A stretch of 64,000 bases of DNA from positions 1,696,001 through 1,760,000 of the forward strand of contig CAWBEI010000002.1 in assembly GCA_963787835.1 (NCBI GenBank), written 5' to 3'. Position numbers and translations under genes: made by a program. Below the pieces are notes generated by a model, which was not told the origin of the DNA, did no database searches, and saw nothing but the letters and a program-made list of their open reading frames with translations. This DNA is from Ignavibacteriota bacterium (GTDB lineage Bacteria > Bacteroidota > Ignavibacteria > Palsa-1295). Of the stretch, positions 6,692 to 28,188 are shown piece by piece. Within the stretch, counting starts at the first letter, position 1. Every line of letters begins with the position of its first letter.

Positions 6692-9600
6692 GTGAGAATT
6701 ATTTCGGGCAATTCCTGGCAAACGGAACACATCGCGTCGCGGGCGATGGGTTGTGCCGTGGCCTTGATTCTGGTTACGTCGATGCTCTCACTGGACTCCT
6801 GCCGCAAGCCGAAGGAGGTAGAAAAGAATCCCAACCAAACCAAGACCGATACGACGGCACCGGATACTTCCAAGGGTTTTATTTCCCAGCAATACGATTC
6901 GCTCTCCCATAAATTCACCGATTTTTTCAGTTCGCTGCTTCCGCGTGGGAAGGATACCACCAAGGGCTTTCCGATGGTCACCACCCCTCCGCCGGACCTG
7001 AATCCGCCCGTCGTTACGCCGGACATTCCTGCGGAGCCGGGGTTCTTAGCTTCTCCGATCAAGCGCAAGATCGAGTTCGATACCAATGGCAACGTCGTCC
7101 AGCGCGATGTATTTTTGGGCAGCGATGTCCGCTCTCCGGTCACAACATCCTTCAGCGATTATATTCATGCGCAGGAGGATCAGACGATCACATCCGGCTT
7201 CGAAGCCGCGATGCACAAGCAGATCGATACCGGAAAGACGGTCGATCAGCAAACCGGATTGCTCGGCGATTACAACACGATCCAAATTCCCATTCCGCCG
7301 AGCATCGTTCCCACCATCTTTGGCCGGCCATCGATCAATCTCAAGGTCAACGGCGATGTCGGGATCCACATGGCGTATCGCGATCAGGTAACGTATGCCA
7401 CAGCCGGCGCGAATTTCTTTGGTTCGGAACAAGGGCTTGATTTCAAACAGGAGATCAACATCTCGACCAACGGGACGATCGGCGATAAACTAAAGATCGG
7501 CGCCGACTGGGGTTCCGACCGTATGTTCCAATACGATAATCTGCTCAAGTTCAACTATCAGGGTTACCCCGATGAGATCCTGCAGGAGTTCGATGCCGGA
7601 AACGTTACCTTCAACACGCCATCGCAATATATCGCCCCGCAGCAGGATCTGTTCGGATTGAAGGCGATCATGCGCTTTGGGCCGCTGTATGTCACGGCGC
7701 TCGCAGCGCAGAAAAAAGGATCGCGTGGATCGAAATCCTTCGGCGGTGGAGCCGGCACTGCGACCGAGCACCTCATTCAGCCCTGGACCTATAGACGCAA
7801 CCGCTTTTTCTTAGATACCAGCTTCATCAAATATTACGAGCCTACGCTTTCAACGATTCCCGAGGGCGGCTCTCCGCTGGTTCAGAACGGTACAGTCGAA
7901 GTGTGGCAGACGACCACTCAGCTCACGCTGATCAATGTGCGTCCGGCGGTAGCCTATTATTCGCTGCCCGCAAGTAATGCCGGGTATTCTTCGGCTATGC
8001 GGTCAGCATCGGGGAATGGACAAACCATCATCAATGCACACTGGGTCAAAATGGATACCTCGCGGTACACCGTCGATTGGAACACCGGGGTGCTTATTCT
8101 GAGTCAGGATCCGGAAGATGTCCAAACCAGTCTTGCCGTCAGTTACCAAACGGCCAACGGTGCACAATATGGCGACAGGAGCACCGATCAAAGTGACAGT
8201 ACCCTGGTGCTAAAGTTGATAAAACCCGCTGGAACGTTTTCGAATGTCGCGTATCCCTCCTGGAATAACCTGCTCAAAAATTCCTATTATATCGGTGGCG
8301 TGGGATTCGATCCCACGAATTTCTCCGGACGTATCGACCTGACCGCTCCCGGCGGCCATCAGATAGAATATTTGAGCGTGGCGAGCGGCGGAACTCCCCA
8401 AAAGGCGATCTCGATCATGGGACTCGACCGGTATAATAATTCCTCTCCATCCAACAAAACACCGGATGGACTCATCGACTATGGCCAGCAGTTCACCAGC
8501 GACTATATTGTCGATCCCAAAACGGGAACCATCATATTCCCGTATTTGCAGCCATTCGGCTCCGTTATTTCGAACTATAATGCCGCACAGAAAAGGCGAG
8601 ACGCCAAGTATGTGGATGATACCAATTTTTATATGCCCGAAATTTACAATACCATACAAAGTACGCTGGTGCAAACGGAGACGAAACTCGTCAATCTGGA
8701 TATTAAGTACACGGGCGGCGTTTCCTCCACGCTTAATCTTGGGGCCTTTAACTTGGTAGAAGGCAGTGTGCGCGTAACCATTGGCGGTACGCAGCTTGTC
8801 GAAGGAACGGATTACCGTGTCGATTATAATTCCGGGACGGTCACCATCCTGAACTCGGACCTCATCAATACCGGGCAGATCAATGTGGAGTACGACGTGC
8901 ACGATGTATTCTCGAATGCGACGAAGAACGTGCTTGGCATGCGCGCGGAAGTGCCACTCTTCGACGATCAGGCGATTCAAAAGGGAGATATTGGCATCAC
9001 AGCTTTGAATTACTCCGCCTCGCTGCCAACCTTGAAGACGCGGCAGGGCGAAGAACCATTTTCCAATTGGATCATCGGCGCCGATGGAAGTTATAAGTTC
9101 GATGCGCCATTCCTGACAGACGCGCTGAATGCAATGCCGATCTTCAATTTGAAGGATAAATCGAGCCTTGCGGTCAAGGTGGATGCGGCGGTCTCCCTGC
9201 CGAATCCGAATACGGATGTATCGCCTATGCCTGTGGATAATGGTGCGTCGATCGCGTATCTCGATGATTTCGAGGGAGGGCTGAACGAATTCCCGCTGTA
9301 CTTGAACTATGGCCGCTGGGTTCCCGCTTCGCAGCCAATGGATAGTGCTTTCCAGGCGCGGCATCCAGCCGGCAACAATCCGGATAGCGCATATTGGACC
9401 AACCCCATTAACCAGCTTAAAGGGCGGACGGCCTGGTATCCACCGACAACGATGCCGTACCCAGGTGTGGGGTTCCCGCCGCTTTCTGGCCCGGCTGGTA
9501 TAAAACCGAACGAGCAAACGGCGACTACCGGCCAAACTGCTACTACGATGTGGTACACCTTCGACCCAACGCAGGCCGGTATCTACAATCCAAACCCCTC

Positions 9601-12600
9601 ATCGCTCGGCACGCGGGATAACTGGGGTGGGATGATGCAATATGCGCCTGGGCTGAATGTTGCGGCCACGAACACGGACGCTATTCAATTCTATATTAAG
9701 GTCGATGCTCTCGATCCATCGGATGCGGATACCGCAAAACTACGGTTCGATCTGGGAATTATTAATGACGATATTATCCCCGATAAAAAACTCGAAACCG
9801 AAGATAAAGCCCAGAACGGTCGCTATGAACCGGGTGAGGACGTTGGTCTCGATGGCCTCACCGACGCGCAGGAACAGGTCCAGTTTGGTACGAAGGTTCC
9901 CGATCCAAGCAATGACGACTATGGCACCGATTACCTGCATCTGAACGGTCAGGAAGGGAATGAGAACGATGCGTTTGCGGGCTTGACACCGGATCACGAA
10001 GATCTGGATGCGAGTGGTTCCGTTAATCTCAGCGATGCCTACTATGAATATGAGATCCCACTCAATATGGCGCTCAATAAGTATATTATTGGTGGGAATC
10101 CTTCGCAAGGGTGGTATCAGCTGCGCATTCCATTGGCAGATTATAGTCGAATTGTTGGCACGAACGATAGTTCCTTCAGCAATATCAGTTACTACAGAAT
10201 ATGGACGAAGGATGTAACGCATCCGGTGCAGTTCGAATTGTTCGAATTCATGATGGTCGGCAGCCAATGGACCCGTGGCTCCGTCGGGCTGAATCCTACG
10301 AATCCTATCGCTGATACTTCGCTGAAGATCGATTACGTTAATATCTGGGATAACAGCGGTGCACCAACCAATTATTCACCGCCTCCCGGTGCGGCAACCA
10401 CGCTTCAACCGGCTTCGACCGGTTACATTCCCGGCAACGAGCAATCGCTCTTGATGCATATTGCGTGTATTCCGGATACCGCGCGGCGCGAGGCTCAGCG
10501 TATTTTCCCGACGCCGAACGATCTCTTTAATTATCAGGCGATGGCCATCTGGGTGCATGGCGATAGCGCTACGGTTCCCACAAAGCCGCTGAACACCATC
10601 GCCGATACGGCGGGGCGCGTGTGGGTCTATTGGCGGTTCGGCTCCGATCAGTACGATTATTACGAGTATCGCCTGCCGCTCGTTGGAGGATGGCAGAACA
10701 TGCACGTGGATTTCAACACCTTGGTCAATATGAAGGTGGAACGCCCTTCCACGAATTACACGATCACCCAGACTGACCCGAACGGGGTTCCCGGCGCGAC
10801 GTATTCGGTCGTCGGCAGCCCCACATTTACGAACGCACCCTATTTTATACTCGGTGTGCAGAGCGAGACGCATCAGAGCTGCCTCACGACGGACATCTGG
10901 TGGGATGAGCTTCGCCTGCTGGACGCCAACAATAAAGTGGGCTATGCCTGGAATACGTCATCGCAGTTGAAGCTTGCGGAGTTTGGAACGATCTCCGGCT
11001 CGATCGCCGATCAAAGCGCGGATTTTCACCAGGTTGATGAACAATTTAATACCACGCGATCCGCAAACTTTAACTGGAATGTGACCGGCGTGTTCGCGAT
11101 GGATAAATTACTTCCACAATGGATGGAAGACAAAGGGTCCAAGCTTCCGCTGACGATCTCTCATGTCGAGTCCATTATCACTCCGGAGTATATCGTCAAT
11201 ACCGACATCAATCTTGCGAATGCGGTTTCGGCCATTAATACGGCGCCTGATCTTACTGCTTCGCAAAAACAATATCTTGTCGATTCGCTGACGAACAATA
11301 ATCAGACGCTTCAGGTCAAGAATTCTTTTGGCATGAACGATATAGCCCTGCGCTTTCCGGGATCGTTCTTTTTGATACCGGGATTCATCAACCGGCTTGA
11401 TTTTGGGTTTGGCTACACGGAGTCCTATCTGCGGTCGCCGCAATATCAATATGATTATACCTTCGGCTGGACGGTTTCAGGCCATTACTCGCTTCCGCCA
11501 TTGCCGGGGCTTGGTTTGGAACCGCTTAAATGGTGGGGAACCACCACGCCGATCATCGGGCCTTACTCGCAATGGAAGGTGAACCTGACGCCGAGCAATG
11601 TTTCGTTCGGAATTTCTGCCACGCGGAGCCGGAGTATCTCGCTCGAACAACTTTCCACGCTGACACTCCCGCCGGAAGGAAGCACCACGCAGGATACGCT
11701 CGACATACTGAACTCCCGTGTGCCTGTTATCAACCGCGTGTTTACGGCCACGCGTGGCATGCAGATCGACTGGCAGCCCTTTGAAGGAGGCATGCTTTCT
11801 CCAAAATTCAATTACGCGCTGGACGTAACGAGTAATCTTGCTCCACTCGAAACCACGACCTCTTGGAACCAACCCACGACCTACGACGCCAATGGGAACC
11901 CGATCTATAATTACGACAGCGTCTATTACACCCAGCGAAGTTTCCACGATATTTTGAACGATGTCTTCTTCAAGAACGGACAGCTTGCGCAGTTGGGGCA
12001 GGATTTCAGCGCCAGCCAGCGCGTTCACATGGGAACGACTCCACGGCTTCCCGGCCTCTTCGGATTCGAAAAGTGGGTCAAGCCAGTCTTCGATTATCAG
12101 GTGACGTACAAGTGGTTGAATGCACAAACCGGTTTGCAGAATGCCAAGCAGGGCGCGTGGAACAATACCATCACCACCGGGCTGGAATTTAATCTTCGTG
12201 ATCTTGGCACGATGCTTTTTGGTAAGGGATTTGCGGAGGAAGCGCCGCAGCGAGGCCGCCACGAGGAGCGCAACCGGCTTGGAACCACGCCGGAAGAACT
12301 GCAACCGCAGGGATTTGAATCGCGCCAAACCCCACTTCAGGGCCCGCAAGATCAGCCGCGCAACCAGGTGGAGCGTGGTGAAGATTTGCGTCCGCAATCT
12401 CGCCCAAATCCGTTGGGCCGCTCGACCTATATCACGGATACGATGCATAAAACAACGCTCGAAACGCCGCCGATCGATACCGTTGGTAAAATTCACAGTC
12501 ATGGGATCGGAACCGAAGGCATCAACGATAGGGAATATGTGGTCGATACCACACTATCGCCGGAAGCCCCGCCGGTTGCCGAAGGAGTAGTTCCCGAATT

Positions 12601-14008
12601 GGCGGCTCAGGAACCGGAATCCAACCTGCTGCAACAGATATTGCAGAATGCGGTGGAAAAACCGCTCTTCGATTGGAATGGAACCCGGTTCAATTTTATT
12701 CAGACCAACGCCAGCCTGAATAATGCCCTTGCAGGTAATGGCTCTGGCATTACCAATTTCCTCGCTCGCGGATTTTTTGCTCCGGAAGACGATCTGGATG
12801 GGCCTTCGCGCGCCTATCAGTTAGGGCTTATTACCGATCCCTCCGGACGCTTGCTGTTCCATTGGCAAAACCGGTTCCCATTTCTCTGGTATTCTGTTCG
12901 CCCAGGGCTTCGGGCAGACGACCCGTTCGGCGGGAACGTCGATGTGACGGACGCCTTCAATCAGACCAATAATTTTGAATTAACGACCAGCCGCCCGTTG
13001 TGGAAAGGCGCATCCATCAGTCTGAACTGGAAGCTTTCCTTTGGCTTCGACGAACGCGATGCGCTCAACATTAACAGCGAGGGCGAGCCAAGCACGCTCT
13101 ATGAAGCAAAATCCGGAGATATTTCCCGCACGTTCTTTTCTATTCCTTCCCTCCCGTTCCTTGGTAATGTGTTCCAAAGCGGCATTATTAATGTAGGAGA
13201 GAAGTACAAGCAAATGGTGATGGCCGCCGGTGCGCCGAATGAAGATACTGCCCGCTTCGTGTTGCCGACAGCACAGCACAACCTTATCGAGCAGAATGCC
13301 TTTATGGAAGGATTTGAAACCCTACCATTCTTTGAGAGTGCGCTTCGGGAATATCTGCCACGGCTAAATTATTCCTTCACCTGGTCGGGGCTGGAGAAAT
13401 TTCCGTTGTTCAGCTTTGCGGACCACGCGAGTTTCCGCGACGCGTATAATGGAACCTACCGGCGCTCGTTCCGACAGGATCCCGGCGATACGCTCGATCT
13501 TACTTCCATGCAAACGATCGTCTATGGGTTCCGTCCGCTCATCGCCTTCGATATGTCGTGGGATAAGCTATGGAATGGCAAGCTCACCACCAGCCTCAAT
13601 TACGATACACAAACGCAATGGGCTGCCGATTATGCTTCCACGCGCATTACCGAGCAGCTTTCTACTACGTTTGGCATAACCGCGAATTATTCGAGGCAGG
13701 GTCTTAATATTCCGTTCCTCAAACTGAATCTCAAGAACGAACTCACGGCAAGCTTCACGCTCAGTGAGACCATCTCATCGAGCAGTTATTATAATTTCTG
13801 GACCATCGACCAAATACCAGGCGGCATTAGCGATGGAGGACTTACCAAAATTACGATCGAGCCGCGCGTGGGCTACAGCATGAGCCAGCAGCTTACCGTC
13901 GAGATGTTCTACCATTACGAGCGCACTACGCCGGCCGCAAGTGGACTGATCAGCCCGCCAACTTTGCTTGTCGAGGCAGGGTTCGATATTAAGCTGAAGA
14001 TACAGTAA
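6692..14008 (+). CDS. sprA: Type IX secretion system translocon SprA/Sov
   Basis: 2438 aa; GTIGDKL, EILQEFDAGNV, LFGLK, GSVRVTIGG..EGTDYRVDY, AYLDDFEG, WYQLRIPL and WWDELRL motifs; exact start uncertain. Confidence 0.92.
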   Translation: MRIISGNSWQTEHIASRAMGCAVALILVTSMLSLDSCRKPKEVEKNPNQTKTDTTAPDTSKGFISQQYDSLSHKFTDFFSSLLPRGKDTTKGFPMVTTPPPDLNPPVVTPDIPAEPGFLASPIKRKIEFDTNGNVVQRDVFLGSDVRSPVTTSFSDYIHAQEDQTITSGFEAAMHKQIDTGKTVDQQTGLLGDYNTIQIPIPPSIVPTIFGRPSINLKVNGDVGIHMAYRDQVTYATAGANFFGSEQGLDFKQEINISTNGTIGDKLKIGADWGSDRMFQYDNLLKFNYQGYPDEILQEFDAGNVTFNTPSQYIAPQQDLFGLKAIMRFGPLYVTALAAQKKGSRGSKSFGGGAGTATEHLIQPWTYRRNRFFLDTSFIKYYEPTLSTIPEGGSPLVQNGTVEVWQTTTQLTLINVRPAVAYYSLPASNAGYSSAMRSASGNGQTIINAHWVKMDTSRYTVDWNTGVLILSQDPEDVQTSLAVSYQTANGAQYGDRSTDQSDSTLVLKLIKPAGTFSNVAYPSWNNLLKNSYYIGGVGFDPTNFSGRIDLTAPGGHQIEYLSVASGGTPQKAISIMGLDRYNNSSPSNKTPDGLIDYGQQFTSDYIVDPKTGTIIFPYLQPFGSVISNYNAAQKRRDAKYVDDTNFYMPEIYNTIQSTLVQTETKLVNLDIKYTGGVSSTLNLGAFNLVEGSVRVTIGGTQLVEGTDYRVDYNSGTVTILNSDLINTGQINVEYDVHDVFSNATKNVLGMRAEVPLFDDQAIQKGDIGITALNYSASLPTLKTRQGEEPFSNWIIGADGSYKFDAPFLTDALNAMPIFNLKDKSSLAVKVDAAVSLPNPNTDVSPMPVDNGASIAYLDDFEGGLNEFPLYLNYGRWVPASQPMDSAFQARHPAGNNPDSAYWTNPINQLKGRTAWYPPTTMPYPGVGFPPLSGPAGIKPNEQTATTGQTATTMWYTFDPTQAGIYNPNPSSLGTRDNWGGMMQYAPGLNVAATNTDAIQFYIKVDALDPSDADTAKLRFDLGIINDDIIPDKKLETEDKAQNGRYEPGEDVGLDGLTDAQEQVQFGTKVPDPSNDDYGTDYLHLNGQEGNENDAFAGLTPDHEDLDASGSVNLSDAYYEYEIPLNMALNKYIIGGNPSQGWYQLRIPLADYSRIVGTNDSSFSNISYYRIWTKDVTHPVQFELFEFMMVGSQWTRGSVGLNPTNPIADTSLKIDYVNIWDNSGAPTNYSPPPGAATTLQPASTGYIPGNEQSLLMHIACIPDTARREAQRIFPTPNDLFNYQAMAIWVHGDSATVPTKPLNTIADTAGRVWVYWRFGSDQYDYYEYRLPLVGGWQNMHVDFNTLVNMKVERPSTNYTITQTDPNGVPGATYSVVGSPTFTNAPYFILGVQSETHQSCLTTDIWWDELRLLDANNKVGYAWNTSSQLKLAEFGTISGSIADQSADFHQVDEQFNTTRSANFNWNVTGVFAMDKLLPQWMEDKGSKLPLTISHVESIITPEYIVNTDINLANAVSAINTAPDLTASQKQYLVDSLTNNNQTLQVKNSFGMNDIALRFPGSFFLIPGFINRLDFGFGYTESYLRSPQYQYDYTFGWTVSGHYSLPPLPGLGLEPLKWWGTTTPIIGPYSQWKVNLTPSNVSFGISATRSRSISLEQLSTLTLPPEGSTTQDTLDILNSRVPVINRVFTATRGMQIDWQPFEGGMLSPKFNYALDVTSNLAPLETTTSWNQPTTYDANGNPIYNYDSVYYTQRSFHDILNDVFFKNGQLAQLGQDFSASQRVHMGTTPRLPGLFGFEKWVKPVFDYQVTYKWLNAQTGLQNAKQGAWNNTITTGLEFNLRDLGTMLFGKGFAEEAPQRGRHEERNRLGTTPEELQPQGFESRQTPLQGPQDQPRNQVERGEDLRPQSRPNPLGRSTYITDTMHKTTLETPPIDTVGKIHSHGIGTEGINDREYVVDTTLSPEAPPVAEGVVPELAAQEPESNLLQQILQNAVEKPLFDWNGTRFNFIQTNASLNNALAGNGSGITNFLARGFFAPEDDLDGPSRAYQLGLITDPSGRLLFHWQNRFPFLWYSVRPGLRADDPFGGNVDVTDAFNQTNNFELTTSRPLWKGASISLNWKLSFGFDERDALNINSEGEPSTLYEAKSGDISRTFFSIPSLPFLGNVFQSGIINVGEKYKQMVMAAGAPNEDTARFVLPTAQHNLIEQNAFMEGFETLPFFESALREYLPRLNYSFTWSGLEKFPLFSFADHASFRDAYNGTYRRSFRQDPGDTLDLTSMQTIVYGFRPLIAFDMSWDKLWNGKLTTSLNYDTQTQWAADYASTRITEQLSTTFGITANYSRQGLNIPFLKLNLKNELTASFTLSETISSSSYYNFWTIDQIPGGISDGGLTKITIEPRVGYSMSQQLTVEMFYHYERTTPAASGLISPPTLLVEAGFDIKLKIQ

Positions 14009-16082: not shown

Positions 16083-16151
16083 TAACGCCGTAGGCTGGAT
16101 GCTGCCGGCGCTCCGAACGTGTTGACCGTGCTGCTCTGTTCATAGGCTCCT

Positions 16152-17078
16152 ATGGCACAGCAACGGTTTGAAGATCTTGGAATCGGCACAAAGGCGGCCG
16201 AATCGCGAGTTCGGCTGCTCAATCGGGACGGCTCGTTCAACGTTCACCGCCGTGGGCTTCCGTTTCTTTCGTGGTTCAGCGGTTATCACTACCTGATCTC
16301 GATCCCGTGGTGGAAATTCAGCGTTTTGATCTTTCTTGCATACGTATTCATCAATGCGTGCTTTGGTGGTATCTATCTCTTGATCGGCACGGATGGCCTC
16401 TCCGGGATTGATGGCCATACGCTCGCCGAGCGCTATTTAGAATCGGTCTTTTTTAGTACGCAGACATTTACCACGGTAGGGTTCGGGCGAATCGCTCCGG
16501 TCGGAATGGGTGCGAACATTGTGGCAGCATTCGAATCTCTAACCGGATTGCTTTGCTTTGCCCTTGCGACGGGATTACTCTATGGAAGATTCTCCCGTCC
16601 GGTGGCGAAAATTATTTTCAGCAAACACGCCCTGATCGCTCCGTATGAAAATATCACCGCCTTTATGTTCCGAATCGCGAACCAGCGTATCAACCAATTG
16701 ATCGATGTTAAGGCTACGGTCACGCTAAGCCGGCGTGAAACCGGTCCGGATGGAAAACTAGCTCGAAAATTCTATCCGCTCGACTTGGAACGAAAATCGG
16801 TGACATTTTTTCATTTAAGCTGGACGGTTGTTCATCCGATCACGGAGCAAAGTCCGCTATACGGAGTTAACGAGCAACAGTTGGATGAATCCGATGCGGA
16901 GTTCCTTATCTTGATGGAAGCGTTCGATGATACTTTCTCGCAAAATGTCCATACGCGAACCTCCTATAAGGATCATGAGGTGGTATTTGGCCAGAAGTTC
17001 AAAAGTATTATTCGGATCGGGTCGGACGGCGTGACCGAGATCGATCTTGACAAGATCCATGACTATGAGAAAGCGTAA
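16152..17078 (+). CDS. Inward-rectifier potassium channel (KirBac-like)
   Basis: FFSTQTFTTVGFG selectivity filter; RFSRP, FRIANQR and WTVVHPITEQSPL. Confidence 0.92.
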   Translation: MAQQRFEDLGIGTKAAESRVRLLNRDGSFNVHRRGLPFLSWFSGYHYLISIPWWKFSVLIFLAYVFINACFGGIYLLIGTDGLSGIDGHTLAERYLESVFFSTQTFTTVGFGRIAPVGMGANIVAAFESLTGLLCFALATGLLYGRFSRPVAKIIFSKHALIAPYENITAFMFRIANQRINQLIDVKATVTLSRRETGPDGKLARKFYPLDLERKSVTFFHLSWTVVHPITEQSPLYGVNEQQLDESDAEFLILMEAFDDTFSQNVHTRTSYKDHEVVFGQKFKSIIRIGSDGVTEIDLDKIHDYEKA

Positions 17079-17227
17079 TGAAACCGAGTGTACAGTAGTG
17101 TGTTATTATTTACGAGCGCACTTACTAACAATATTGATATTCGTAATGGGTCTGAGGCGCTAATTCGATAAGTATATTTTTGCGAGCAACCTCGTTTTTC
17201 CTCTTTTCTCGATTAGTCAGACCTTTG

Positions 17228-17884
17228 ATGGGTCTTAGCTGCCGTTTATTCGGGGCAACGCTTTTGGTTGTGATCTATTGCACTACTTGTTTCGCACAAT
17301 CGAAGGGGCTACCACCCGTTCCTTCTCTACAGGATATCAGTACCACCTATATTTTCGCCTCCATCGGAGCGTTTATTCCATCTTCAGAAAGCTACAGGCT
17401 CAATTTTGCGAACAGCTTCATCGGGCTACCGATCGAAGTAAGCGGGGGATTGCTTTTTCCGCTTGGCCACGATGTGTTCGTTCCTTTCACAGTTCGCTAT
17501 GACCGCCGGACGGCCAATTTTGTGACGGGAATGTCCATGGAGGTAACGTCGATCGAACCGGGGGTGCGATATTTTTTCCAAAAGGAGAATGCCCACGATC
17601 TTCGGATCTTTGGATCGGTCGAGGGACTTTTCGCTAATGCGAGCGTTGCAGGTACCTATGATGTTTCGGCGGACGGCACGGTTAGTGGTACCGCACTCGC
17701 CCAAAGGGACTATTTTAATATCGGGCTGGGTGTCAACCTTGGCCTCATGTATCCGTTAACTCCGACCACCTCACTCGAAGCGATCGTTCATTTAGCCACC
17801 TACCTGGCAAGCCCCGTTGCCAATGGTGGGCTGGGAAATATTGGCGGGGTATCGATCAGCGCATCGTATCGTTTTGGATTTTGA
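17228..17884 (+). CDS. Small outer-membrane beta-barrel protein
   Basis: Signal peptide (..CFA|Q), amphipathic strands, C-terminal SYRFGF; start set at ATG 17228. Confidence 0.65.
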   Translation: MGLSCRLFGATLLVVIYCTTCFAQSKGLPPVPSLQDISTTYIFASIGAFIPSSESYRLNFANSFIGLPIEVSGGLLFPLGHDVFVPFTVRYDRRTANFVTGMSMEVTSIEPGVRYFFQKENAHDLRIFGSVEGLFANASVAGTYDVSADGTVSGTALAQRDYFNIGLGVNLGLMYPLTPTTSLEAIVHLATYLASPVANGGLGNIGGVSISASYRFGF

Positions 17885-17886
17885 TC

Positions 17887-18324
17887 ATGCTCAGACCTCA
17901 GAACTACTCAAGACGCATTATTTTCTCGCTCGTGCTGATCGGGATGATGGGTTGCTCGACGGAGGCAGTCCAGAATGGTTCCATCCGCCTTCAATTCAGC
18001 CGGAAGCCTGCACCACAGGGCGCTCTGAAGGACTCGCTCTTTCCAGTCTCCCCAAATCCGTTCAACCGCACTGCCGGGGATACAAGCTTATTAATTGTGT
18101 TTACGCTTCAGGATACCAGTGCTGCAAATCTGCTCGTTCAGAACGCGATCGGCGATCCGATCGCGGATTATTATGACACGCTGCTTCCGCCAGGTACCTA
18201 CTCCGGCTGGTGGGAGCCTTTTGCTTCGGACGGAACTCCGCTCATGAGTGGGATTTATTTTGTTACGATACAGAATGGCGCATTTATCGATTCGCGTTTA
18301 GTCAATTTACAAGAAAATGAATAA
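17887..18324 (+). CDS. Lipoprotein consisting mainly of a T9SS-CTD/FlgD-Ig-like domain
   Basis: Lipobox MMGC; SPNPFN...GTYSGWW..SDGTPLMSGIYFVTI. Confidence 0.65.
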   Translation: MLRPQNYSRRIIFSLVLIGMMGCSTEAVQNGSIRLQFSRKPAPQGALKDSLFPVSPNPFNRTAGDTSLLIVFTLQDTSAANLLVQNAIGDPIADYYDTLLPPGTYSGWWEPFASDGTPLMSGIYFVTIQNGAFIDSRLVNLQENE

Positions 18325-19354
18325 GACTCATGAACGGATAAGGCATAGTGGAAAGTGGATGGTACATCCTGCAATACTTTTGTGCTTTTGCATAGTATTC
18401 ATGGTTTTTCAAGTTCACATAGCGCGTTCTCAAACTGCGAATGTCGGTACACTTTCCACTATTCACTCTCCACTGCCGATTGATCGTTATCTGCAGCTCG
18501 CGCATCCGATCGGAACCGTGAAGCTTGATTTTCCCGGACCAGGCGGAGGGTTCACCTTCATCCATCTTCCAACCAAAGAACGAATGGAGTGGGGAGATAC
18601 GCTTGTGAATGACCACACCTATCTTCTTGATCTGAACGTTGCTAACGATGGTCTTTATCTTGCTCCGGATACGATGGTTTCGTTTGCAAGCACGACGCCG
18701 TTCCAGTTCGTTCTGTCCAAAGCCCATATCATTCATGCTGATCTTACACCCGGGCACTCTAAGGAAGTGCTTCGGGGACTCGATTCCTCCTTCAACGGTA
18801 CGATCGGTTTCGGGCTTATCAAGCAGTTCATTACTGCATTTGATTTCAAGAGAAATCAGCTTACGTTCTACCCCCTTTATTCGAGCGATTCCATTCCGGA
18901 TGACGATACTAACGTGATCCAGCTTCCATTATTAGATGATGCAGAGGTCACGTATTGCCATTGTTTTTCGCATACGATCTGGTTGGATGTTAAGGCGCCA
19001 CCATTACCGGAGGGGCATGTAAATCTTGCATTTCACATTCCGCAATCGGAGATCTACAAACCTTCGCTCGATTCTGCAACCCGGATCAAGGTCGATCAGA
19101 ATCATTTGCAGGATTCGCTCGCGGGTGGGAACCGCCCGATCGGATTAGAACTGGGTCCCTTTCTGATACGCGATCTGTCCGGGCACGTTTATAATCTGTC
19201 CCATCGAAATCCGCATCGCCTTGTGGATCCCATGCCGCCTATCTATCATGATTTCAACATTCCCGTCATGGGTTCGCTTGGCACCGATGTGCTGCGGACG
19301 TTCAGCGGCATCATCATCGACCCCTCTCGCGGGCGGGTGATCTTTGTGAAGTAG
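18317..19354 (+). CDS. Secreted tandem retropepsin-like protein with degenerate active sites
   Basis: Two GxxGxxxL...D motifs (GTIGFGLIKQFITAFDF; GSLGTDVLRTFSGIIID) but no D-T/S-G. Confidence 0.55.
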   Translation: MNKTHERIRHSGKWMVHPAILLCFCIVFMVFQVHIARSQTANVGTLSTIHSPLPIDRYLQLAHPIGTVKLDFPGPGGGFTFIHLPTKERMEWGDTLVNDHTYLLDLNVANDGLYLAPDTMVSFASTTPFQFVLSKAHIIHADLTPGHSKEVLRGLDSSFNGTIGFGLIKQFITAFDFKRNQLTFYPLYSSDSIPDDDTNVIQLPLLDDAEVTYCHCFSHTIWLDVKAPPLPEGHVNLAFHIPQSEIYKPSLDSATRIKVDQNHLQDSLAGGNRPIGLELGPFLIRDLSGHVYNLSHRNPHRLVDPMPPIYHDFNIPVMGSLGTDVLRTFSGIIIDPSRGRVIFVK

Positions 19355-20458: not shown

Positions 20459-21154
20459 ATGTTCACGGGCATCATTGAAGAACTCGGCACAATCGTTGAC
20501 CAAAATATAACAGGAACATCACTCTGTCTCAAAATTGAGGCAGGGCGAATTTTCTCAGAGATCTCTGATGGGGCAGAAAAACCTCAAAATGGGCTAAAAA
20601 TAGGGGATTCCATTGCTGTCAATGGCGTATGCCTCACGGCGACGGAAATCGGATCAAGCATGATCGGTCATGCGCTGCCCTATTTTAAGGTCACTGCAGT
20701 AGAGGAAACTCTTGAGAAAACGACGTTCGGTTCATTGATAGTTAGGAATAAGGATAAGGTCAGCACCCATGGATCGGTACCCAAAACCGGCCCGGTGGTC
20801 AACCTTGAGCGAGCAGTTATGCTCGAGACACGTTTAGGCGGGCATCTCGTCCAGGGACATGTCGATGGCGTTGCGGCTATTCGAGATATCCAGGATAAGA
20901 ACGGAAGCTGGGAATTCAGCTTCACTATTGCTCCGGAGATGACCCGGTATCTGACGTCCAAAGGCTCGATTGCCATCGATGGCGTCAGCCTGACGGTTGC
21001 ATCCATCGAACAGTCCTGCTTGACGGTTGCGATCATTCCCCACACCTACTATCATACGAACTTCCAGTTTTTGAAAATTGGCGACATGGTCAATGTGGAG
21101 TTCGACATCATTGCAAAAATGGTCGAGCGTCTCGTGAGGCCGTATCAGTCATAG
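20459..21154 (+). CDS. ribE: Riboflavin synthase
   Basis: N-terminal MFTGIIEE, GDSIAVNGVCLT, GGHLVQGHVD and KGSIAIDGVSLT. Confidence 0.95.
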   Translation: MFTGIIEELGTIVDQNITGTSLCLKIEAGRIFSEISDGAEKPQNGLKIGDSIAVNGVCLTATEIGSSMIGHALPYFKVTAVEETLEKTTFGSLIVRNKDKVSTHGSVPKTGPVVNLERAVMLETRLGGHLVQGHVDGVAAIRDIQDKNGSWEFSFTIAPEMTRYLTSKGSIAIDGVSLTVASIEQSCLTVAIIPHTYYHTNFQFLKIGDMVNVEFDIIAKMVERLVRPYQS

Positions 21155-21238: not shown

Positions 21239-22894
21239 ATGTCTAAGGGCGGCGGAGCTGGAAAAGTTTATTTCATCTTGTACCTGGCGGTTCTGTTGGA
21301 ACTGCTCATCATTATTGTCGAGCGTGACGATGCCGAAGATGCGCTGAAGAAGGAAAAGGAAGAACTTCTTCGCAAGACCAAGCGCATTCAGCTTATTGCG
21401 GAGACGATCATTAATTCGCTTCGCGGCTCTCCAACGGCGGTGAGCGCCACTTCAGACCAGAGCATGGTCTTGGGCGATAAGACCGAAGCCAACGGCCGAA
21501 TGTTCAATGTTCGCATTCGTTTGGCAGACCCGAAACACGATACTGTTAAGGAGCTCGACCTGCATATTCTGCGAAACAATGCAGAAATGGCGACCCTCAA
21601 TCTCGCGGGGGATTCCAGCCTCTATCCACGGACGCGCGAAGGTAACGACTTTATCTTCTCCTACGCATTCAAGCCGCAGTTCGGCGCAGGGGAATACAAG
21701 CTTCATTTCGATGCGCGTACCAACCAGGTTGTTGGCGTTACCCAAACGGCTTCACCGGACGATACGGTAAAGATCGGCGCGGTGCACCTTACCGTAAAAG
21801 AATTAAAGGAAGTGAAGGATGGTATTTCCGAAAATATCGGGTTGCGTGGATATATTGATTCCCTTCTCAACGGTGGCTATGAGAATTTCTCTGCCAATAT
21901 TGGTTCTAATGAATTTACGGTTAATGTAAAACCGCCGCAGGAAGTCGATCAGCTTAAGATCTTCCCGCAGGAACAGAACTTCGCTTCGTTCCCGTCGCTG
22001 GATCTTCCGAATGCCGTGAAGATCGAGGGTGCTACGATCTCCGGACCGCAAGGCGTGAAGATCACGAAAGTCGATGGCCCCGGAGAGATCATTCAGGTTG
22101 ATTCGAACTTCTACTGGACCTGGAAACCGGACGCATCCGCGATCGGCCAGACCTATACCGTCAAGCTTGCCGGTAAAGCCAATCGTAATGGTGCACAGAA
22201 AGATCAGGCTACTACCACGTTCAGTGTGGTCGTGGATAAGATGGAGAAGGCTAATGCATCGCCCTACTTCCCAGAGAATAAGAAGACACACGAAGCATTA
22301 CCTTATACAAGTATTCCATTCAAAGCAAATGAGCAATTCGCTAATCTCAATGGTGCTTATAAAACCGAGATCGATATTAATGGAACGAAGGTGAAGGAGT
22401 CAGCAGAACCGACGATCGAATATACGCCGGAATTTTTGAAAGATGAAGGCAAGTCCATTGAGGTCAAGGCGTTCTATAAATCGGAGTTTATGAAGGATTA
22501 TGTCCAACTTGACGATCAGACGTTCAAGATTGCTTATCCTCCTTTCGTTGCTGCCTCCGAAGGAGATATTACCGCCGGGGATCAGTTCTATGTGAAGGCT
22601 GCACTTGGTCTTCCTAACTTTTATCAGGAAATTGGTGCCGATCACATTGACCTACAGTCGGATGGCTATTTGGAGCCAACTGCGAAAAAACAGCCGGGTC
22701 AGGGAATGAAAATTGAATTTGTTGCAAATACGACGACCAAAGCAAATGGCATTAAAAAGAAGGATGGGCAGACGATTGACGTTACCGCAACAGACCCAAT
22801 TACTCACCAATCGCAGACATTTTCGGTCACAATTTCTCCGAAAGTGCAAGCCAAGAAGGGCTTTGGGGGTGGTGGAGGTGGCGGGATACACTAA
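21239..22894 (+). CDS. Single-pass inner-membrane protein with long periplasmic beta/Ig region, GldM/PorM-like architecture
   Basis: Short Gly/Lys N-terminus, TM helix VYFILYLAVLLELLIIIV, coiled coil, then repeated beta-sandwich-like segments. Confidence 0.55.
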   Translation: MSKGGGAGKVYFILYLAVLLELLIIIVERDDAEDALKKEKEELLRKTKRIQLIAETIINSLRGSPTAVSATSDQSMVLGDKTEANGRMFNVRIRLADPKHDTVKELDLHILRNNAEMATLNLAGDSSLYPRTREGNDFIFSYAFKPQFGAGEYKLHFDARTNQVVGVTQTASPDDTVKIGAVHLTVKELKEVKDGISENIGLRGYIDSLLNGGYENFSANIGSNEFTVNVKPPQEVDQLKIFPQEQNFASFPSLDLPNAVKIEGATISGPQGVKITKVDGPGEIIQVDSNFYWTWKPDASAIGQTYTVKLAGKANRNGAQKDQATTTFSVVVDKMEKANASPYFPENKKTHEALPYTSIPFKANEQFANLNGAYKTEIDINGTKVKESAEPTIEYTPEFLKDEGKSIEVKAFYKSEFMKDYVQLDDQTFKIAYPPFVAASEGDITAGDQFYVKAALGLPNFYQEIGADHIDLQSDGYLEPTAKKQPGQGMKIEFVANTTTKANGIKKKDGQTIDVTATDPITHQSQTFSVTISPKVQAKKGFGGGGGGGIH

Positions 22895-22982
22895 CGTTTT
22901 TTGATGGTGGGCCTCTTCCCTGAAGTTTGGAGGAGAGGCCACGAATTTCAAACAGATTTTTATTCGCGTATTGAATTAATTT

Positions 22983-24698
22983 ATGAGACTTACGATCCCT
23001 GTTCTTCCGAAGAAGTTCTTGAGCATGTCGATGCTATTGCTTTCGATCTTTATTCCTTTTGTGGCAATCCATGCACAATCTGCCGGCCCCGTGACCGACT
23101 CACTGAAAGCGATTACGCTCCGAAATGAGAAGATGTATCGCATGCTGAGTAACATGGAAGACAAAGGCGCTGATTATGTATTCACCAACGTGACCGCATG
23201 GAAGATTACCGATCCGGATCTTCAAGCACAGATCATTAAAGCTTATACTACGAAATATGGAGAGAAGCAGCTGAAAAATTTCGACATCGCGGACGTCTAT
23301 GTTTTCTCCGCTCCTACTGGTGTGGAGCGGTATCAGCCATTTCATGTTTTGTTCATGGGTACAAGAAGAAAAGACGTCGATACATCTGGCGGGGGCAATA
23401 CCGATATTACATTTTTAGGCACACGACACAAGGCCAATACCAATGAAAAAGTACCTGTAGCATTCAAAGGTCGTGAAGTGATTCGTATGATGCAACAAAA
23501 CCCAGCACTTATGGACGACATTAACGCTGTTCAGGGAGAGATTGTCGAATTGCCCGGAGAACTTGCCCCGCGGGGTGCTCAAGTCGTAAAAAATTCCGAT
23601 GAACGGTACATTTTTCATCAGATGTTCACCGGATTTTATTCGAGAACAACGATGATCAACGAGCAGTACCGTGCCCTGAATCTGCCGACGATGGATGAAG
23701 AAGGGGCGCCAATCGATTCCAATGCTGTTCCTATCCCGACGGAAGCTGACGAATCGGGTGAGAATGGAGCAGGCTCTCCGATGCTCAGTGCTGAAGACCT
23801 CGATTCCCGCGCGTTCCGCTATCAGAAGATCGTCGATCTTTCGATCGATCATCTTACAGTCAATCTTTCACGTCAGAATCAACTCGAAGTTGCACTTGGC
23901 AATCCCGAAGTTGGCCTTCCGTTCTGGTCGAGCGGGGAAGCATCGGTGCTGCTCAATATGCGAAATCAGATCGGAACCGAAAGCGATTTTAAGATCGGCG
24001 TGGATTTCCCGAATTTCGGACTCGGAAATGTCAGCAATTCGTTGTTCGAGCCGCGTGAGCTTTCAGGCTCCTGGGGTGGGACGGTATCCGCGTATTTTGC
24101 GGGGCTCGACTTTTTTTCTGCCTTCAATCTTCCGCTTGCCTTTAATTTTTCGGTATTCCCGTCGGGCGGTTCGAACTCATCGATCATCTATAATGGGGTA
24201 GCGGGTACAGTTCCCACTCCCATATATAACGGTCCGACGACCGTTGCCGCAGGTCAGACGTTTTACCGGACAGCATTCATTGGGCAATTATACATTCCGT
24301 TTATCGTCCAGCTCGATCCGGCGAGCTTTGTGCAGTTCTCGGCAGGTATCGGTGTCGATGAGGTCAAGTTAAGCTGGATACCGGCCAATAACGATACGGC
24401 GTCAAAATATGGCTACGGTACCGGGCAGGGCGGAGATGTACAGGACTTGCTTTATAATGGCAAAAGCAATGTATCGACTCCGTTCACTCCGCACGTTGCG
24501 ATAGAATATGTCAATCACCGGTCGAACAAGTTTGGGCTGGATTTCCAATACGACCACTTATTCACGTTCGGCGGGTGGCTCGAATTAGTCCCGGATCATC
24601 TGCGGCTCGAAGCGTCCTATACCGCTCCGCTCGTACGCGACGCGCTTCCTTACGAACCGCCGTACTTCTTTGAAATCACCCCACGCATTTATTTCTAA
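22983..24698 (+). CDS. Hypothetical outer-membrane protein (N-terminal periplasmic domain + C-terminal beta-barrel)
   Basis: Signal peptide IHA|Q, amphipathic strands, C-terminal ITPRIYF; paralog of the next gene. Confidence 0.65.
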   Translation: MRLTIPVLPKKFLSMSMLLLSIFIPFVAIHAQSAGPVTDSLKAITLRNEKMYRMLSNMEDKGADYVFTNVTAWKITDPDLQAQIIKAYTTKYGEKQLKNFDIADVYVFSAPTGVERYQPFHVLFMGTRRKDVDTSGGGNTDITFLGTRHKANTNEKVPVAFKGREVIRMMQQNPALMDDINAVQGEIVELPGELAPRGAQVVKNSDERYIFHQMFTGFYSRTTMINEQYRALNLPTMDEEGAPIDSNAVPIPTEADESGENGAGSPMLSAEDLDSRAFRYQKIVDLSIDHLTVNLSRQNQLEVALGNPEVGLPFWSSGEASVLLNMRNQIGTESDFKIGVDFPNFGLGNVSNSLFEPRELSGSWGGTVSAYFAGLDFFSAFNLPLAFNFSVFPSGGSNSSIIYNGVAGTVPTPIYNGPTTVAAGQTFYRTAFIGQLYIPFIVQLDPASFVQFSAGIGVDEVKLSWIPANNDTASKYGYGTGQGGDVQDLLYNGKSNVSTPFTPHVAIEYVNHRSNKFGLDFQYDHLFTFGGWLELVPDHLRLEASYTAPLVRDALPYEPPYFFEITPRIYF

Positions 24699-24720
24699 TA
24701 TGATCAGAAGCCAACGAACA

Positions 24721-26118
24721 ATGAAAATCTCAAGGTATCAGACAATGAAGAATTTTTTGGGTCTGCTTCTGGCCATCGCGTCGATCGGAGTCCTCTCGAT
24801 GGGCTTCGTTCACGATGTGCATGCGCAACAGGGCGAACAGCAGCCGCAATCGCCACAGCTTACCGCCGGCGATTCTTTAGCTAACGCAAAAGAAGAGAAT
24901 AAGACGCTTGAAACCATTTTGCGCTCGATTAACTCAATCGATACTGCGCGGCAGAATGAATTGATTCAGTGGATCATCACTGATCGCGCTATTCGCTCGC
25001 GAGTAATCAGTGCATTACGTAAGTCCGGTGCGATCCTTCCCCCTAATTCTGTTGCGGAAATGACCGTTACGCAAGTACCTCCTAATCAATATAACGATCA
25101 GGATCAGTTGCTTCGTCTTGTCATCCAGTCGGTCGGAGTATATGGTGATGCTAATATCAAACGGGTGCTTGGTAGTGATCTCTATGATAGAATTAATTCG
25201 CGACAAAACTATGAGTTCACCCTCATTTCAACGGCTCCGGAACAGGAGAAGATCCAGTTCATTAAAATGAACGCCTCGCTGTTTGGCGGCGATATGGTGT
25301 TTAAGTCAGGATTTGGCTTTGCTATAAATGTCGGTGATGATTTCGACGGCTATCCATTTTGGCTTCCGGGTACGATCGGCACGTACGGTATTGTCAATGA
25401 TGGCCTGACGGATTTCCGTATTGGAATAGAATGGCCGCTTGGAGAATCAGGTGAGACACCATTTGTCGTTTCACAGGGTCTGCAGATACGCCAGCGTTTG
25501 CTGGTGGGTGCAGAAGCCTTCGATGTTGGTCTGAAGCAGGATCTTGGAGTACTTCAGACCCAATCAGGAAAGTTAACCATTGGTGCGGAGTTCCGCGATG
25601 CGTTCACGCCTTCGGTCACAAGTTTCCCAGGGCTTGCACTCGAACAGCAGTATGAGACGGATGGGCCAATGAACAGAAATGGTATTCATGGCGCTGCGGA
25701 CAGCCTTTACTATCTGGCGCTCTCGGCTCATGCCTATCTTTCCTACCAATTCCCGAACCAATCGCTCGCAGGAGCTTACGTTCAACTTGGAGGAGGAATA
25801 CATGCCATCCAGCCGGTGACCGTTGGTCAGCCGCCGTATCAGGATCCCACGATGCCAAACACGGATCTCTATTTCGACACACGCCAGACGTACTTCGACC
25901 CGTTCATCAAGCTTGGTTATGTGCATTCCGATGCATCGGGTGAACTCTATTCAGTCAGTGTGCAATATTCCAACACACTGTTGACAGATGCATGGGTACG
26001 GCTTTTTTCATGGCTGGAAATCGAAGCGAAGTATGCGTCCGTTATTGGCCGCAATCCTTACCCATGGGAATGGAAGGACTATGTAATGGTCTCGCCGAAG
26101 CTGATACTTAATTTCTAA
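24721..26118 (+). CDS. Hypothetical outer-membrane protein, paralog of 22983-24698
   Basis: Signal peptide VHA|Q; shared WxITD and GxPFW motifs; C-terminal VSPKLILNF; start could also be 24700 or 24745. Confidence 0.65.
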   Translation: MKISRYQTMKNFLGLLLAIASIGVLSMGFVHDVHAQQGEQQPQSPQLTAGDSLANAKEENKTLETILRSINSIDTARQNELIQWIITDRAIRSRVISALRKSGAILPPNSVAEMTVTQVPPNQYNDQDQLLRLVIQSVGVYGDANIKRVLGSDLYDRINSRQNYEFTLISTAPEQEKIQFIKMNASLFGGDMVFKSGFGFAINVGDDFDGYPFWLPGTIGTYGIVNDGLTDFRIGIEWPLGESGETPFVVSQGLQIRQRLLVGAEAFDVGLKQDLGVLQTQSGKLTIGAEFRDAFTPSVTSFPGLALEQQYETDGPMNRNGIHGAADSLYYLALSAHAYLSYQFPNQSLAGAYVQLGGGIHAIQPVTVGQPPYQDPTMPNTDLYFDTRQTYFDPFIKLGYVHSDASGELYSVSVQYSNTLLTDAWVRLFSWLEIEAKYASVIGRNPYPWEWKDYVMVSPKLILNF

Positions 26119-26152: not shown

Positions 26153-26180
26153 ATGGGGCGATCTTTACAGATCGCCCCAT
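26153..26180. terminator. Probable bidirectional terminator between convergent genes
   Basis: atggggcgatct-ttac-agatcgccccat hairpin with A/T-rich flanks. Confidence 0.7.
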
Positions 26181-26218: not shown

Positions 26219-27337
26219 TTATTTTGCGATCCAGCTTGAATGCAGGATGCCATTGTTGTATTTGGTGTCGAACGTCTTGAATAAATAAGAAGTATCTGAT
26301 TTTGAAGCCTGAATGAGCGTCCGATCGTTCGTCTTTTCCCTTGCCGATTTTCCATTAGCGGCTGCCGACAAGAATTGGCGAACATCTTCGACGGCCGGCG
26401 GCGGATTCCCAGCCTCGCTTGATTTTGCCGGTGCTTGCACGATCTCTTCGGTCACAATACTTCGCAGCAGCTTTGGCCACATCGCTGCGAGCAACGTGTG
26501 TGAACTATAACGCTCTGCTCCGGTAATGACGCCGTTGAGGGCATAGACGAAGCCGACCGCGTGATCGTCATCCCGAACAAGATCCTGGAATTTCCTTTCG
26601 ATACCGTGTTTGCGATCGGCGAGCGCGGGGTTTTCCAGCGATAGCTCCAGGCTCGTGGGCGAGGCATTCCGCGTAACGCTATCCATTAATATTGCAGTGA
26701 GCTTTCTCTGCAGGGTCGAAACATCGTTCCAGACCGACTCCTGGGCTGCATCCACGACGCCGAACGGCTGCGGCATATCTTGCAGCGATTTCAACAGATT
26801 AAGTTGGTTGGTGTCGGGTGCCGTGAATCCTCCAACGTGCGGAGTCAGTAATTGTTCGGTCAGGTCATGCTGGGTAACAAGTCGTGTATGGGATAACGGC
26901 GCCATCCAATGAGAGGAACTGAATGTTTCCAGTGGTTCGGAACCACGTTTGGTAGATCGCCCTTTCTCGATACAAAAAACGTTCAGATCTTCCGACGTAT
27001 CGTGCCCAGGGACGATCATATCATTTTGAACCATCCGGTCCTGCTGCCCTCCCTTGATGAGATCCGAGGATTCCAGGAAGAGATCGGTATCCGAGCGGTT
27101 TTCGATCCATAGTTTCTGGCTGTTGTTCTCGTGAATGACCGCGCTCCCGCTTTGAAGCGCCTCCTCCAGCGTAAGGATGGGAGGGTGAACCTTGGCAGCA
27201 GGAGCAACCTCATCGATCATCCAAAACGTGAGAGGCCCAGCGGTTTTAGGCTCGCGCACGATCGTAGAATCCCCTTCGGCCAGTGCGGGGCTGGCGGCAC
27301 AACAAAGGAGTAAAAGAAATTTCGGAACCAGCTTCAT
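26219..27337 (-). CDS. Secreted ARPP-1/DUF6569-like protein
   Basis: LIKGGQQDR, VFCIEKGR, QESVW and WPKLLRS motifs; signal peptide ALA|E. Confidence 0.7.
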   Translation of the reverse strand: MKLVPKFLLLLCCAASPALAEGDSTIVREPKTAGPLTFWMIDEVAPAAKVHPPILTLEEALQSGSAVIHENNSQKLWIENRSDTDLFLESSDLIKGGQQDRMVQNDMIVPGHDTSEDLNVFCIEKGRSTKRGSEPLETFSSSHWMAPLSHTRLVTQHDLTEQLLTPHVGGFTAPDTNQLNLLKSLQDMPQPFGVVDAAQESVWNDVSTLQRKLTAILMDSVTRNASPTSLELSLENPALADRKHGIERKFQDLVRDDDHAVGFVYALNGVITGAERYSSHTLLAAMWPKLLRSIVTEEIVQAPAKSSEAGNPPPAVEDVRQFLSAAANGKSAREKTNDRTLIQASKSDTSYLFKTFDTKYNNGILHSSWIAK

Positions 27338-27432
27338 CGAAGTTTCCTACGATCCATAGCGGTAAAAAGTTTTACTGGTCTTAAAAAATTCAACGGCTTC
27401 TGAAAAGCACGTTCAGCCGATCTTAAGGAAAA

Positions 27433-28188
27433 TTACCGCACTTCGAATACTACTTTCAATTGTGCATTTTCAGAAAGAGTATTTGGTTGCTGTTTGGCAT
27501 CCTTTGATTTGGATTTGCCACCATGTTCCCGTTCTTCTTCCTCTTCACCGCCTTTCGCGGGAGCAGCAGATGCAGTTTCATCACCCGCCTCTGAAATGGA
27601 AATAATATCGCCGACGGTCTTTCCCATTTCCTTTGCGATAGAGGCTGCTTCTTTACGCGCGTTCTCTATCGCGTTATTTATGGCTTCCGTGTGCAGTGAA
27701 CGTCCCGGCGCAAGTCCGAAGCCATCGACATTGACCGCGCTTGCTCCGCTCTGTGTTGCAAGATCAATGATGCGCGGCAGATCTTTCACATTTTCAAGTT
27801 GCACCTCGAGCGGTGTATCGAGCCTGTACCCGATGATACGGGTTCCATTCTGCCCGTACTCCATATTCGGCATTAAGTGGAATGGCTGTTCGGTAATATC
27901 CTTCGCATCGACTCCTGCATTCACAAGAGCATCTTCAAGATGTTTTAGGACATCATTTTGCTTGACGAACAGCCCGGTCGCGGTTTGATCGCCGCTCGAA
28001 ACAGTTAGGCCAAGTGTAACGCGTTCTGCAACGGCGCCTGCGGATCCGCTTGCGAGCACGGTGATCGTGCGGCCCATCATCGGCATCGGTGGCTGCATCG
28101 GCTGTTGCGCGTTAGCAGCAGTGCTCAAGAACCAGCATGCTGTTGTGACTACTGCGAGGGTGGAATTCTTCTTCATCATAATGAACAT
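27433..28188 (-). CDS. SIMPL-domain (DUF541) periplasmic protein
   Basis: Signal peptide; RTITVxASG, GYR and AIENARKEAASIAKEMG..VG. Confidence 0.85.
   Translation of the reverse strand: MFIMMKKNSTLAVVTTACWFLSTAANAQQPMQPPMPMMGRTITVLASGSAGAVAERVTLGLTVSSGDQTATGLFVKQNDVLKHLEDALVNAGVDAKDITEQPFHLMPNMEYGQNGTRIIGYRLDTPLEVQLENVKDLPRIIDLATQSGASAVNVDGFGLAPGRSLHTEAINNAIENARKEAASIAKEMGKTVGDIISISEAGDETASAAPAKGGEEEEEREHGGKSKSKDAKQQPNTLSENAQLKVVFEVR

Follow-up and report, generated by a model that had tools for sequence, protein, structure and literature searches.

Can a bacterium that carries a type IX secretion system (T9SS) translocon hold an energised cell-envelope machine other than the canonical GldL-GldM motor, and what would such a machine drive? 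The question is raised by a run of three genes in a 64,000-nucleotide window (the whole stretch of DNA analysed) from an Ignavibacteriota bacterium (assembly GCA_963787835.1, contig CAWBEI010000002.1, positions 1,696,001 to 1,760,000). Gene 1 (M) encodes a predicted single-pass inner-membrane protein, and genes 2 and 3 encode two putative outer-membrane barrels, A and B. Our analysis suggests that genes 1-3 and a gene elsewhere in the genome for a GldL-like protein (L) probably encode an ion-driven motor, best read as a divergent GldLM-type proton motor that would have a barrel pair as its output in place of GldK/N. The observations behind this are the architecture of the models, the paralogy of the two barrels, the way in which L, M and the barrels are present or missing together in related genomes, and the L-M-A-B operon found in relatives; rotation is inferred. 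That the motor serves surface motility or the movement of surface proteins, as an accessory machine, is a tentative assignment that we put somewhat below even likelihood. Its single most likely output would be gliding-like surface motility, in which surface-exposed proteins held by the conserved outer loops of the barrels are pulled or moved. The parts of the locus that carry the argument are as follows (coordinates of the window).

21239..22894, + strand: gene 1 (M), predicted single-pass inner-membrane protein of 551 aa, the predicted motor shaft
21266..21319, + strand: gene 1 membrane helix (residues 10-27), in which Tyr11, Phe12, Tyr15 and Glu21 are conserved
21299-21301, + strand: codon of gene 1 Glu21; a conserved Arg29-Asp30 pair follows the helix
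22983..24698, + strand: gene 2 (barrel A), with signal peptide, periplasmic N-terminal part and a C-terminal barrel inferred from its paralogy with gene 3
24721..26118, + strand: gene 3 (barrel B), with signal peptide, alpha/beta domain (residues 49-168) and predicted 14-stranded barrel

The three open reading frames (ORFs) all lie on the + strand (21239-22894, 551 aa; 22983-24698, 571 aa; 24670/24721-26118), gene 3 encoding 482 aa from a TTG start at 24670 or 465 aa from an ATG start at 24721. All three proteins were scanned against Pfam and NCBIfam, with zero matches. The motifs quoted in the original prediction for this DNA, WKITD/WIITD, GLPFW/GYPFW and ITPRIYF/VSPKLILNF among them, were all found in the sequence. 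That prediction also gave gene 1 a GldM-like topology, and the structure model agrees with it. Only one hydrophobic peak was detected in gene 1 (best 19-residue window from residue 10, mean 2.55). The model (pLDDT 90.3, pTM 0.60; 134 sequences) has a continuous helix from residue 8 to 62, with a predicted membrane part at about residues 10-27 and a coiled-coil-like remainder, followed by four immunoglobulin (Ig)-like beta-sandwich domains. Model and hydropathy together give the GldM-type layout of short cytoplasmic tail, N-terminal membrane helix and four periplasmic domains; domains 2-4 of GldM are likewise Ig-like. By a rule-of-thumb estimate the rod would be ~200 Å long. Fold searches with the whole 551-residue model returned generic tandem-Ig proteins only (best Z 9.4-9.5, high root-mean-square deviation (rmsd)), with GldM/PorM absent among the matches listed, and a structure atlas gave generic Ig clusters at <0.82. 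Gene 1 did not match TIGR03517 or the Pfam GldM models, and its Tyr15 aligned with GldM Y17 at 1% probability. When the PDB was searched by sequence using profiles of M, L and the barrels, all matches stayed at chance level.

Homologues of gene 1 were sought with its profile among 1.84 billion representatives, giving 218 matches at E 0.001 or better. From a scan of species genomes the best 80 of 384 confirmed stretches were kept; their labels, taken as given, were mostly Kapabacteria, Ignavibacteria or Bacteroidota, with some others. The named homologues of genes 1-3 belong to Candidatus Kapabacteria, Ignavibacteria and unclassified Bacteroidota assemblies, where all three have consecutive locus tags.

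Genes 2 and 3 had been described as distant paralogs encoding outer-membrane barrels, and both parts of this description held. The paralogy was detected by BLASTP (E 6e-5) and by profile-profile comparison (99.0%, E 3.4e-18, 241 columns). The gene 3 model (pLDDT 83.1) starts with an N-terminal signal helix and continues with the alpha/beta domain (49-168) and 14 strands, the last of which reaches the C-terminal Phe. Its best fold matches were outer-membrane barrels, tied at Z 12.4-13.3 (rmsd 3.5-5.2 Å over 204-235 residues, 5-11% identity). They comprised OmpG, TodX, FadL, CymA, 6h3i chain F (Z 12.4), which we take to be PorV, and 9n2d chain B, presumably BamG. By sequence paralogy gene 2 would also bear a barrel. 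The long loops of the gene 3 model (13, 26, 34, 20 and 11 residues) all lie on one side, with short turns opposite. The long-loop side, which in the model we take to be the cell exterior, also bears the conserved motifs G-Y-P-F-W and R..W-E. Neither gene 2 nor gene 3 matched the PorV family NF033709, and the atlas placed the gene 3 barrel with unnamed clusters at 0.94-0.95, which is a lead only. A quick tree of the barrels has weak deep nodes and so leaves A/B orthology across lineages undecided; E-values from its iterated profile are inflated, because the profile contains its own targets.

The search for a partner of M began from the gene 1 profile itself, which in some relatives of the same class gave short matches to the membrane helix alone. 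Directly upstream of these short M matches lies a gene for a two-helix protein with a helical tail, L. A profile of five L proteins found exactly one relative in our genome (G000:C2:1515138-1516142; E 1.4e-14, or 2e-26 with a better profile), on the same contig as gene 1 and 201 kb from it, in line with the suggestion that an orphan GldL-like partner might be encoded elsewhere. This L has two additional N-terminal hydrophobic segments, and a cytoplasmic helical tail follows the helix pair. Seven residues were invariant in 40/40 L sequences (Tyr210, Gly212, Ala213, Leu216, Gly221, Arg223 and Glu243), and the Tyr, Gly-Ala-Ala and Glu of L align with Y13, G16-A17-A18 and E49 of GldL. The reference set for this comparison consisted of canonical GldL sequences from 49 loci that encode GldM, with one wrongly picked ORF excluded. 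L did not match TIGR03513, Pfam GldL or the MotA/ExbB family PF01618, and no GldL or GldM match in Pfam or NCBIfam was obtained for any of 23 partner and homologue proteins. A complex prediction combining four membrane segments of L and two N-termini of M, run without controls, scored 0.20 and 0.12 (mark, 0.32), which counts neither for nor against a complex. Homology of L and M to GldL and GldM is weak by profile, and the matches listed in the fold searches with M are generic Ig proteins. Several genomes have more than one L-M pair and keep L as two or three paralogues. Kapabacteria-type genomes contain a second adjacent L-M pair in which M has no membrane Glu (L173:1851-4000, L174:1806-4756, L176:1749-4000, L178:1-2116), and often a third, unlinked L; our genome has neither the second pair nor the third L.

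To place the module in the phylum, 401 genomes were sampled, 99 of them, including ours, from this class. SprA was present in all 99 class genomes and canonical GldM in none, and 40 of the 99 had an M-type N-terminus, which was not found outside the class among the 401. Co-occurrence was examined in all 39 M-positive relatives and in 41 of 59 relatives that lack M. In this set, 39/39 M-positive and 0/41 M-negative genomes had L. Barrels were found in 38/39 M-positive genomes, always two or more, and with strong E-values in 0/41 M-negative genomes, where a single weak N-terminal match was seen. These counts have limits: M itself defined the groups, related genomes do not count independently, and the profiles drew sequences from 8 of the 39 for L and from 19 for the barrels. 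The split also holds inside three families of mixed content (f3, 6/8; f5, 6/17; f12, 2/6). The sole M carrier without barrels (G397) is also a Glu-to-Gln variant. Its operon (L057:6949-10753) encodes a long-tailed L, an M with Gln for Glu, a secreted second half and, where other operons have the barrels, an unrelated 302-aa gene.

Gene order ties the parts together. L lies directly upstream of M in 15/15 carriers from the non-Kapabacteria families f3, f5, f12 and f17; f3 has complete L-M-A-B operons, and the order in the mapped relatives is L-M-(M')-A-B. In f5, f12 and f17 a short M (~205 aa) is followed by a secreted beta protein resembling the middle of gene 1 (49%, P 1.8e-4), which by sequence looks like a split M. 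After the split M, several Ignavibacteria-type genomes (L040-L043, also L056) carry the barrel pair twice in tandem, A-B-A'-B'. Among Kapabacteria-type loci, 67/67 of those with >6.5 kb downstream show two barrels after M, and L is near M in 0/87, a set in which at least two loci were fetched twice. A gene for a VWA-OmpA protein follows the barrels in 49/67 of these loci. With the query used it was found in 24/24 Kapabacteria-type carriers vs 0/15 other carriers, so it was rejected as a core part and belongs to a subgroup only. Our genome has an unlinked VWA-OmpA gene (G000:C2:696418-697761), 36-42% identical over its length to the barrel-following copies. Flagellin-family genes occurred at similar frequency with and without the module (24/39 vs 22/41), a lack of pattern on which replacement of flagella by the module was rejected; our genome has no flagellin-family match.

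Which subunit carries the essential acidic residue? The original prediction gave weight to the Glu in the membrane helix of gene 1, by comparison with MotB and ExbD. Conservation of Glu21 stood for the main family and failed for some operon copies. Glu21 and Arg29-Asp30 are present in 222/222 homologues matching the N-terminal profile, of 265 examined, a count biased upward since the profile itself includes the Glu. In gene-1-type proteins from other operon copies the position is Gln, Ser, Asn or Ala, and Glu was found in 2/12 hand-picked copies. Every L examined keeps its Glu, at the position of E49 (40/40). The idea that Glu on M replaces Glu on L was accordingly rejected. Because the Glu of L is always kept and that of M is lost in some copies, placement of the essential acid on L, as in GldL, is the better guess; Glu21 of M is possibly a relay on the periplasmic side.

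These features can be assembled into a mechanism, each step of which extrapolates from the architecture and conservation described above and from the analogies to GldLM (PMC8986121, PMC9389320) and to the Myxococcus platform (PMC9946355). Protons would pass through Glu243 of L, by analogy with GldL E49, and the predicted ring of L would turn or flex the predicted pair of gene 1 rods, in a 5:2 (L:M) stoichiometry if GldLM is a guide. The M rods would span the periplasm, their tips contacting the periplasmic domains of the A and B barrels, and the conserved outer loops of the barrels would hold a surface protein. The patchy distribution of the module beside a universal SprA fits an accessory function.

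Several results weigh against a GldLM-like motor for surface movement. The L profile matched the GldL profile at 26% (P 1.3e-4) with 9 sequences and at 6.8% (P 1.5e-3) with 39, and 2/60 block-shuffled decoys equalled the score. The M profile reached at most 16% with GldM (16% for GldM 245-327, 9% for GldM 335-405). The gene 1 model has no helical first periplasmic domain, its single long helix leading into beta-sandwich. Gene 1 has no Arg at the register of GldM Arg9, the partner of E49; Lys9, present in 195/222 homologues, might stand in its place. The track proteins GldK and GldN and carriers of the PorP/SprF type were not found in our genome, although the GldN and PorP/SprF models were silent in control genomes as well. 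No adhesin gene was seen in the mapped operons, the flagellin frequencies noted above are similar with and without the module, and no report on motility of the carrier organisms was found in the literature.

The same motor could instead replace GldKLMN as the energy source of the T9SS, with the barrel pair as a substitute for the GldK/N hub or as carriers, as the original prediction proposed; we regard this as unlikely. Our genome, 97.9% complete, encodes SprA together with four genes that pass the PorV-family cut-off, and its secretion tails number at least 150. It gave no match to the GldK, GldL, GldM or GldN families anywhere, in agreement with the reported lack of gldK/L/N beside gene 1 (the GldN model with the limit just given). 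SprA is present in every one of the 40 carriers and canonical GldM in none of them, and the gene 3 barrel belongs to the 14-stranded class of the translocon structure 6h3i chain F, tied with OmpG, TodX and FadL. These features of our genome, and the requirement of Flavobacterium for its motor in substrate release (PMC10994853), keep the idea alive. The distribution of the module speaks against it: it does not track sprA, SprA being present in 98/98 class relatives and the module in 39/98, and 59/98 have SprA with neither the module nor canonical GldM. Five module-negative genomes tested had 32, 144 and, in three cases, at least 150 secretion tails. In family f30, SprA is present in 61/61 genomes with no M-like gene and 2 weak partial GldM matches. 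The closeness of sprA to gene 1 was rejected as a functional clue, since sprA was near M in 0/87 other loci (0/56 with >8 kb upstream). The module is thus probably not a general type IX energiser, and a still more divergent motor is possible in the SprA-bearing module-negative genomes. Genomes with SprA and many tails and neither motor include G014, G041, G097, G109, G229 and family f30.

The generic tandem-Ig folds of M resemble spacers and would also suit a static or tension-bearing tether without ion flow, in which M anchors the inner membrane to the barrels, L is a membrane clamp and VWA-OmpA the tie to the cell wall. The frequent VWA-OmpA gene of Kapabacteria-type loci and the unlinked copy here agree with this, but its absence from 15/15 other carriers does not, and invariant buried Glu, Arg and Tyr residues in L are unexpected in a passive clamp, as is the retention of multiple L paralogues and L-M pairs. 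We consider such a tether quite unlikely. An ion-driven importer or exporter of the TonB-ExbBD style, its motor gating or unplugging both barrels for dedicated cargo, is improbable in our view. In structure the barrel comes closest to small-molecule channels (OmpG, TodX, FadL, CymA), the main family has acidic residues in both L and M, and tandem barrel pairs, as in four fully mapped carriers (and L056), would be expected if cargo had diversified. Yet the structural matches are tied and silent on function, folded cargo would have little room in a 14-stranded barrel, and the mapped loci, in which no systematic count was made, showed no recurring binding-protein, ABC or catabolic neighbours. Collectively, the results favour a divergent ion-driven motor coupled to twin barrels. 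That it represents a second, ancient GldLM rotary branch, driving a barrel hetero-pair without the GldK/N ring and powering an undescribed form of gliding or surface-protein handling in Kapabacteria and part of Ignavibacteria, is conceivable and rather doubtful.

To our knowledge, ion-driven 5:2 motors are few, and GldLM has been described only with the GldK/N ring. If the proposal is true, such a sister of GldLM, connected to a pair of barrels, would reveal the origin of the T9SS/gliding motor and another route for torque to the outer membrane, and the many relatives with SprA that lack the module would mean that a GldLM-like motor is dispensable for type IX export. Glu243 of L and Glu21 of M are clear residues for testing. 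The survey also raises the question of the energy source of the T9SS, as 59/98 relatives and the whole of family f30 keep SprA with no detectable motor of either kind, many secreted proteins being kept in those tested (5 class genomes).

The surroundings of the three genes contain the following further features.

6692..14008, + strand: sprA, T9SS translocon (TIGR04189, 757 bits), context only
20459..21154, + strand: lumazine-binding (riboflavin synthase-type) gene, an upstream neighbour kept in close relatives only
22906..22941, + strand: hairpin between genes 1 and 2 (folding z -2.1; 8/200 shuffles equal)
26153..26180, no strand assigned: 12-bp perfect hairpin at the end of the run, with convergent genes on either side, a likely terminator

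The 3' end of sprA is 7,231 bp upstream of gene 1, close to the 7 kb first estimated, and the three-gene run on one strand with a closing terminator-like hairpin was likewise as described. The region has 9 terminator-like sites vs 5.6 +/- 2.6 in shuffles, so the site count alone is unremarkable, and a promoter scan of the region gave chance level only. The hairpin between genes 1 and 2 might, on weak grounds, raise the gene 1 product over the barrel product. The lumazine-binding gene is outside the module. Elsewhere in the window, a 236-aa ORF without a significant Pfam match (2046-2756) precedes a 778-aa ORF that begins Pro-rich and contains a Cys-rich insert (2775-5111; no significant Pfam and no NCBIfam match). 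An arylsulfotransferase-like protein with a weak secretion-tail match and then an inward-rectifier-type potassium channel are encoded at 14211-17078. At 17180-19354 there are three overlapping exported-looking ORFs (234, 147 and 345 aa), the 234-aa ORF with a weak DUF3575 match and the 345-aa ORF without a family match. On the opposite strand, genes for an ARPP-1 domain protein and a SIMPL (DUF541) protein (26219-28188) converge on the terminator.

How does the module compare with known systems? No description of an L-M-barrel module was found in the literature covered (mostly freely readable papers). On T9SSs in Ignavibacteriota and related groups, PMC11285876 goes no further than to say that they may occur there, and PMC7031533 contained nothing on the subject. 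The GldL-GldM / PorL-PorM motor, GldL5-GldM2, serves type IX secretion and gliding (bioRxiv 2020.05.11.089193, 2022.01.28.478170, PMC8986121). E49 is essential in GldL (PMC8986121) and pairs with GldM Arg9 (bioRxiv 2022.01.28.478170, 2020.05.11.089193), and GldM is single-pass with four periplasmic domains (bioRxiv 2020.05.11.089193). L resembles GldL in its two helices, the Tyr and Gly-Ala-Ala of helix 1, the invariant Glu of helix 2 and the cytoplasmic tail; M resembles GldM in being single-pass with a conserved Tyr and four periplasmic domains. The order L then M, the phylum and the constant presence of SprA in the genomes are also shared. Unlike GldLM, the proteins match no family model, and profile similarity is 6-26% in the case of L and does not exceed 16% in that of M. 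M lacks an Arg9 equivalent at register and a helical first domain, has the extra Glu21 in the main family, and is split in two in many Ignavibacteria-type genomes (second half, 49% profile match). The L of our genome has two extra N-terminal helices and is unlinked from M. Two barrels stand where GldK and GldN, encoded with L and M in the canonical T9SS core, are found in the known system, the mapped operons here being L-M-(M')-A-B.

Among the 5:2 motors MotAB, ExbBD, TolQR and AglRQS (PMC9389320), the acidic residue in the helix of the single-pass subunit has a counterpart in the main M family, and Kapabacteria-type genomes have an associated wall anchor of OmpA type. However, L has no MotA/ExbB match, the one PF01618 gene of our genome lying elsewhere (contig C5), and here the single-pass Glu is not universal whereas the L Glu is. 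In Myxococcus gliding, a hetero-oligomeric barrel platform (GltA, GltB, GltH) holds the VWA adhesin CglB (PMC9946355), and the Agl-Glt machinery described there combines, as the module may do, an inner-membrane motor with an outer-membrane barrel hetero-oligomer and an associated VWA-domain protein. This likeness is one of analogy only. VWA here is fused to an OmpA-type domain, which makes the protein likely periplasmic, and is confined to one subgroup. With OmpG, FadL/TodX, CymA, 6h3i chain F and 9n2d chain B the gene 3 model shares strand number (14) and topology, to which gene 3 adds a periplasmic alpha/beta domain and constant encoding as an A+B pair.

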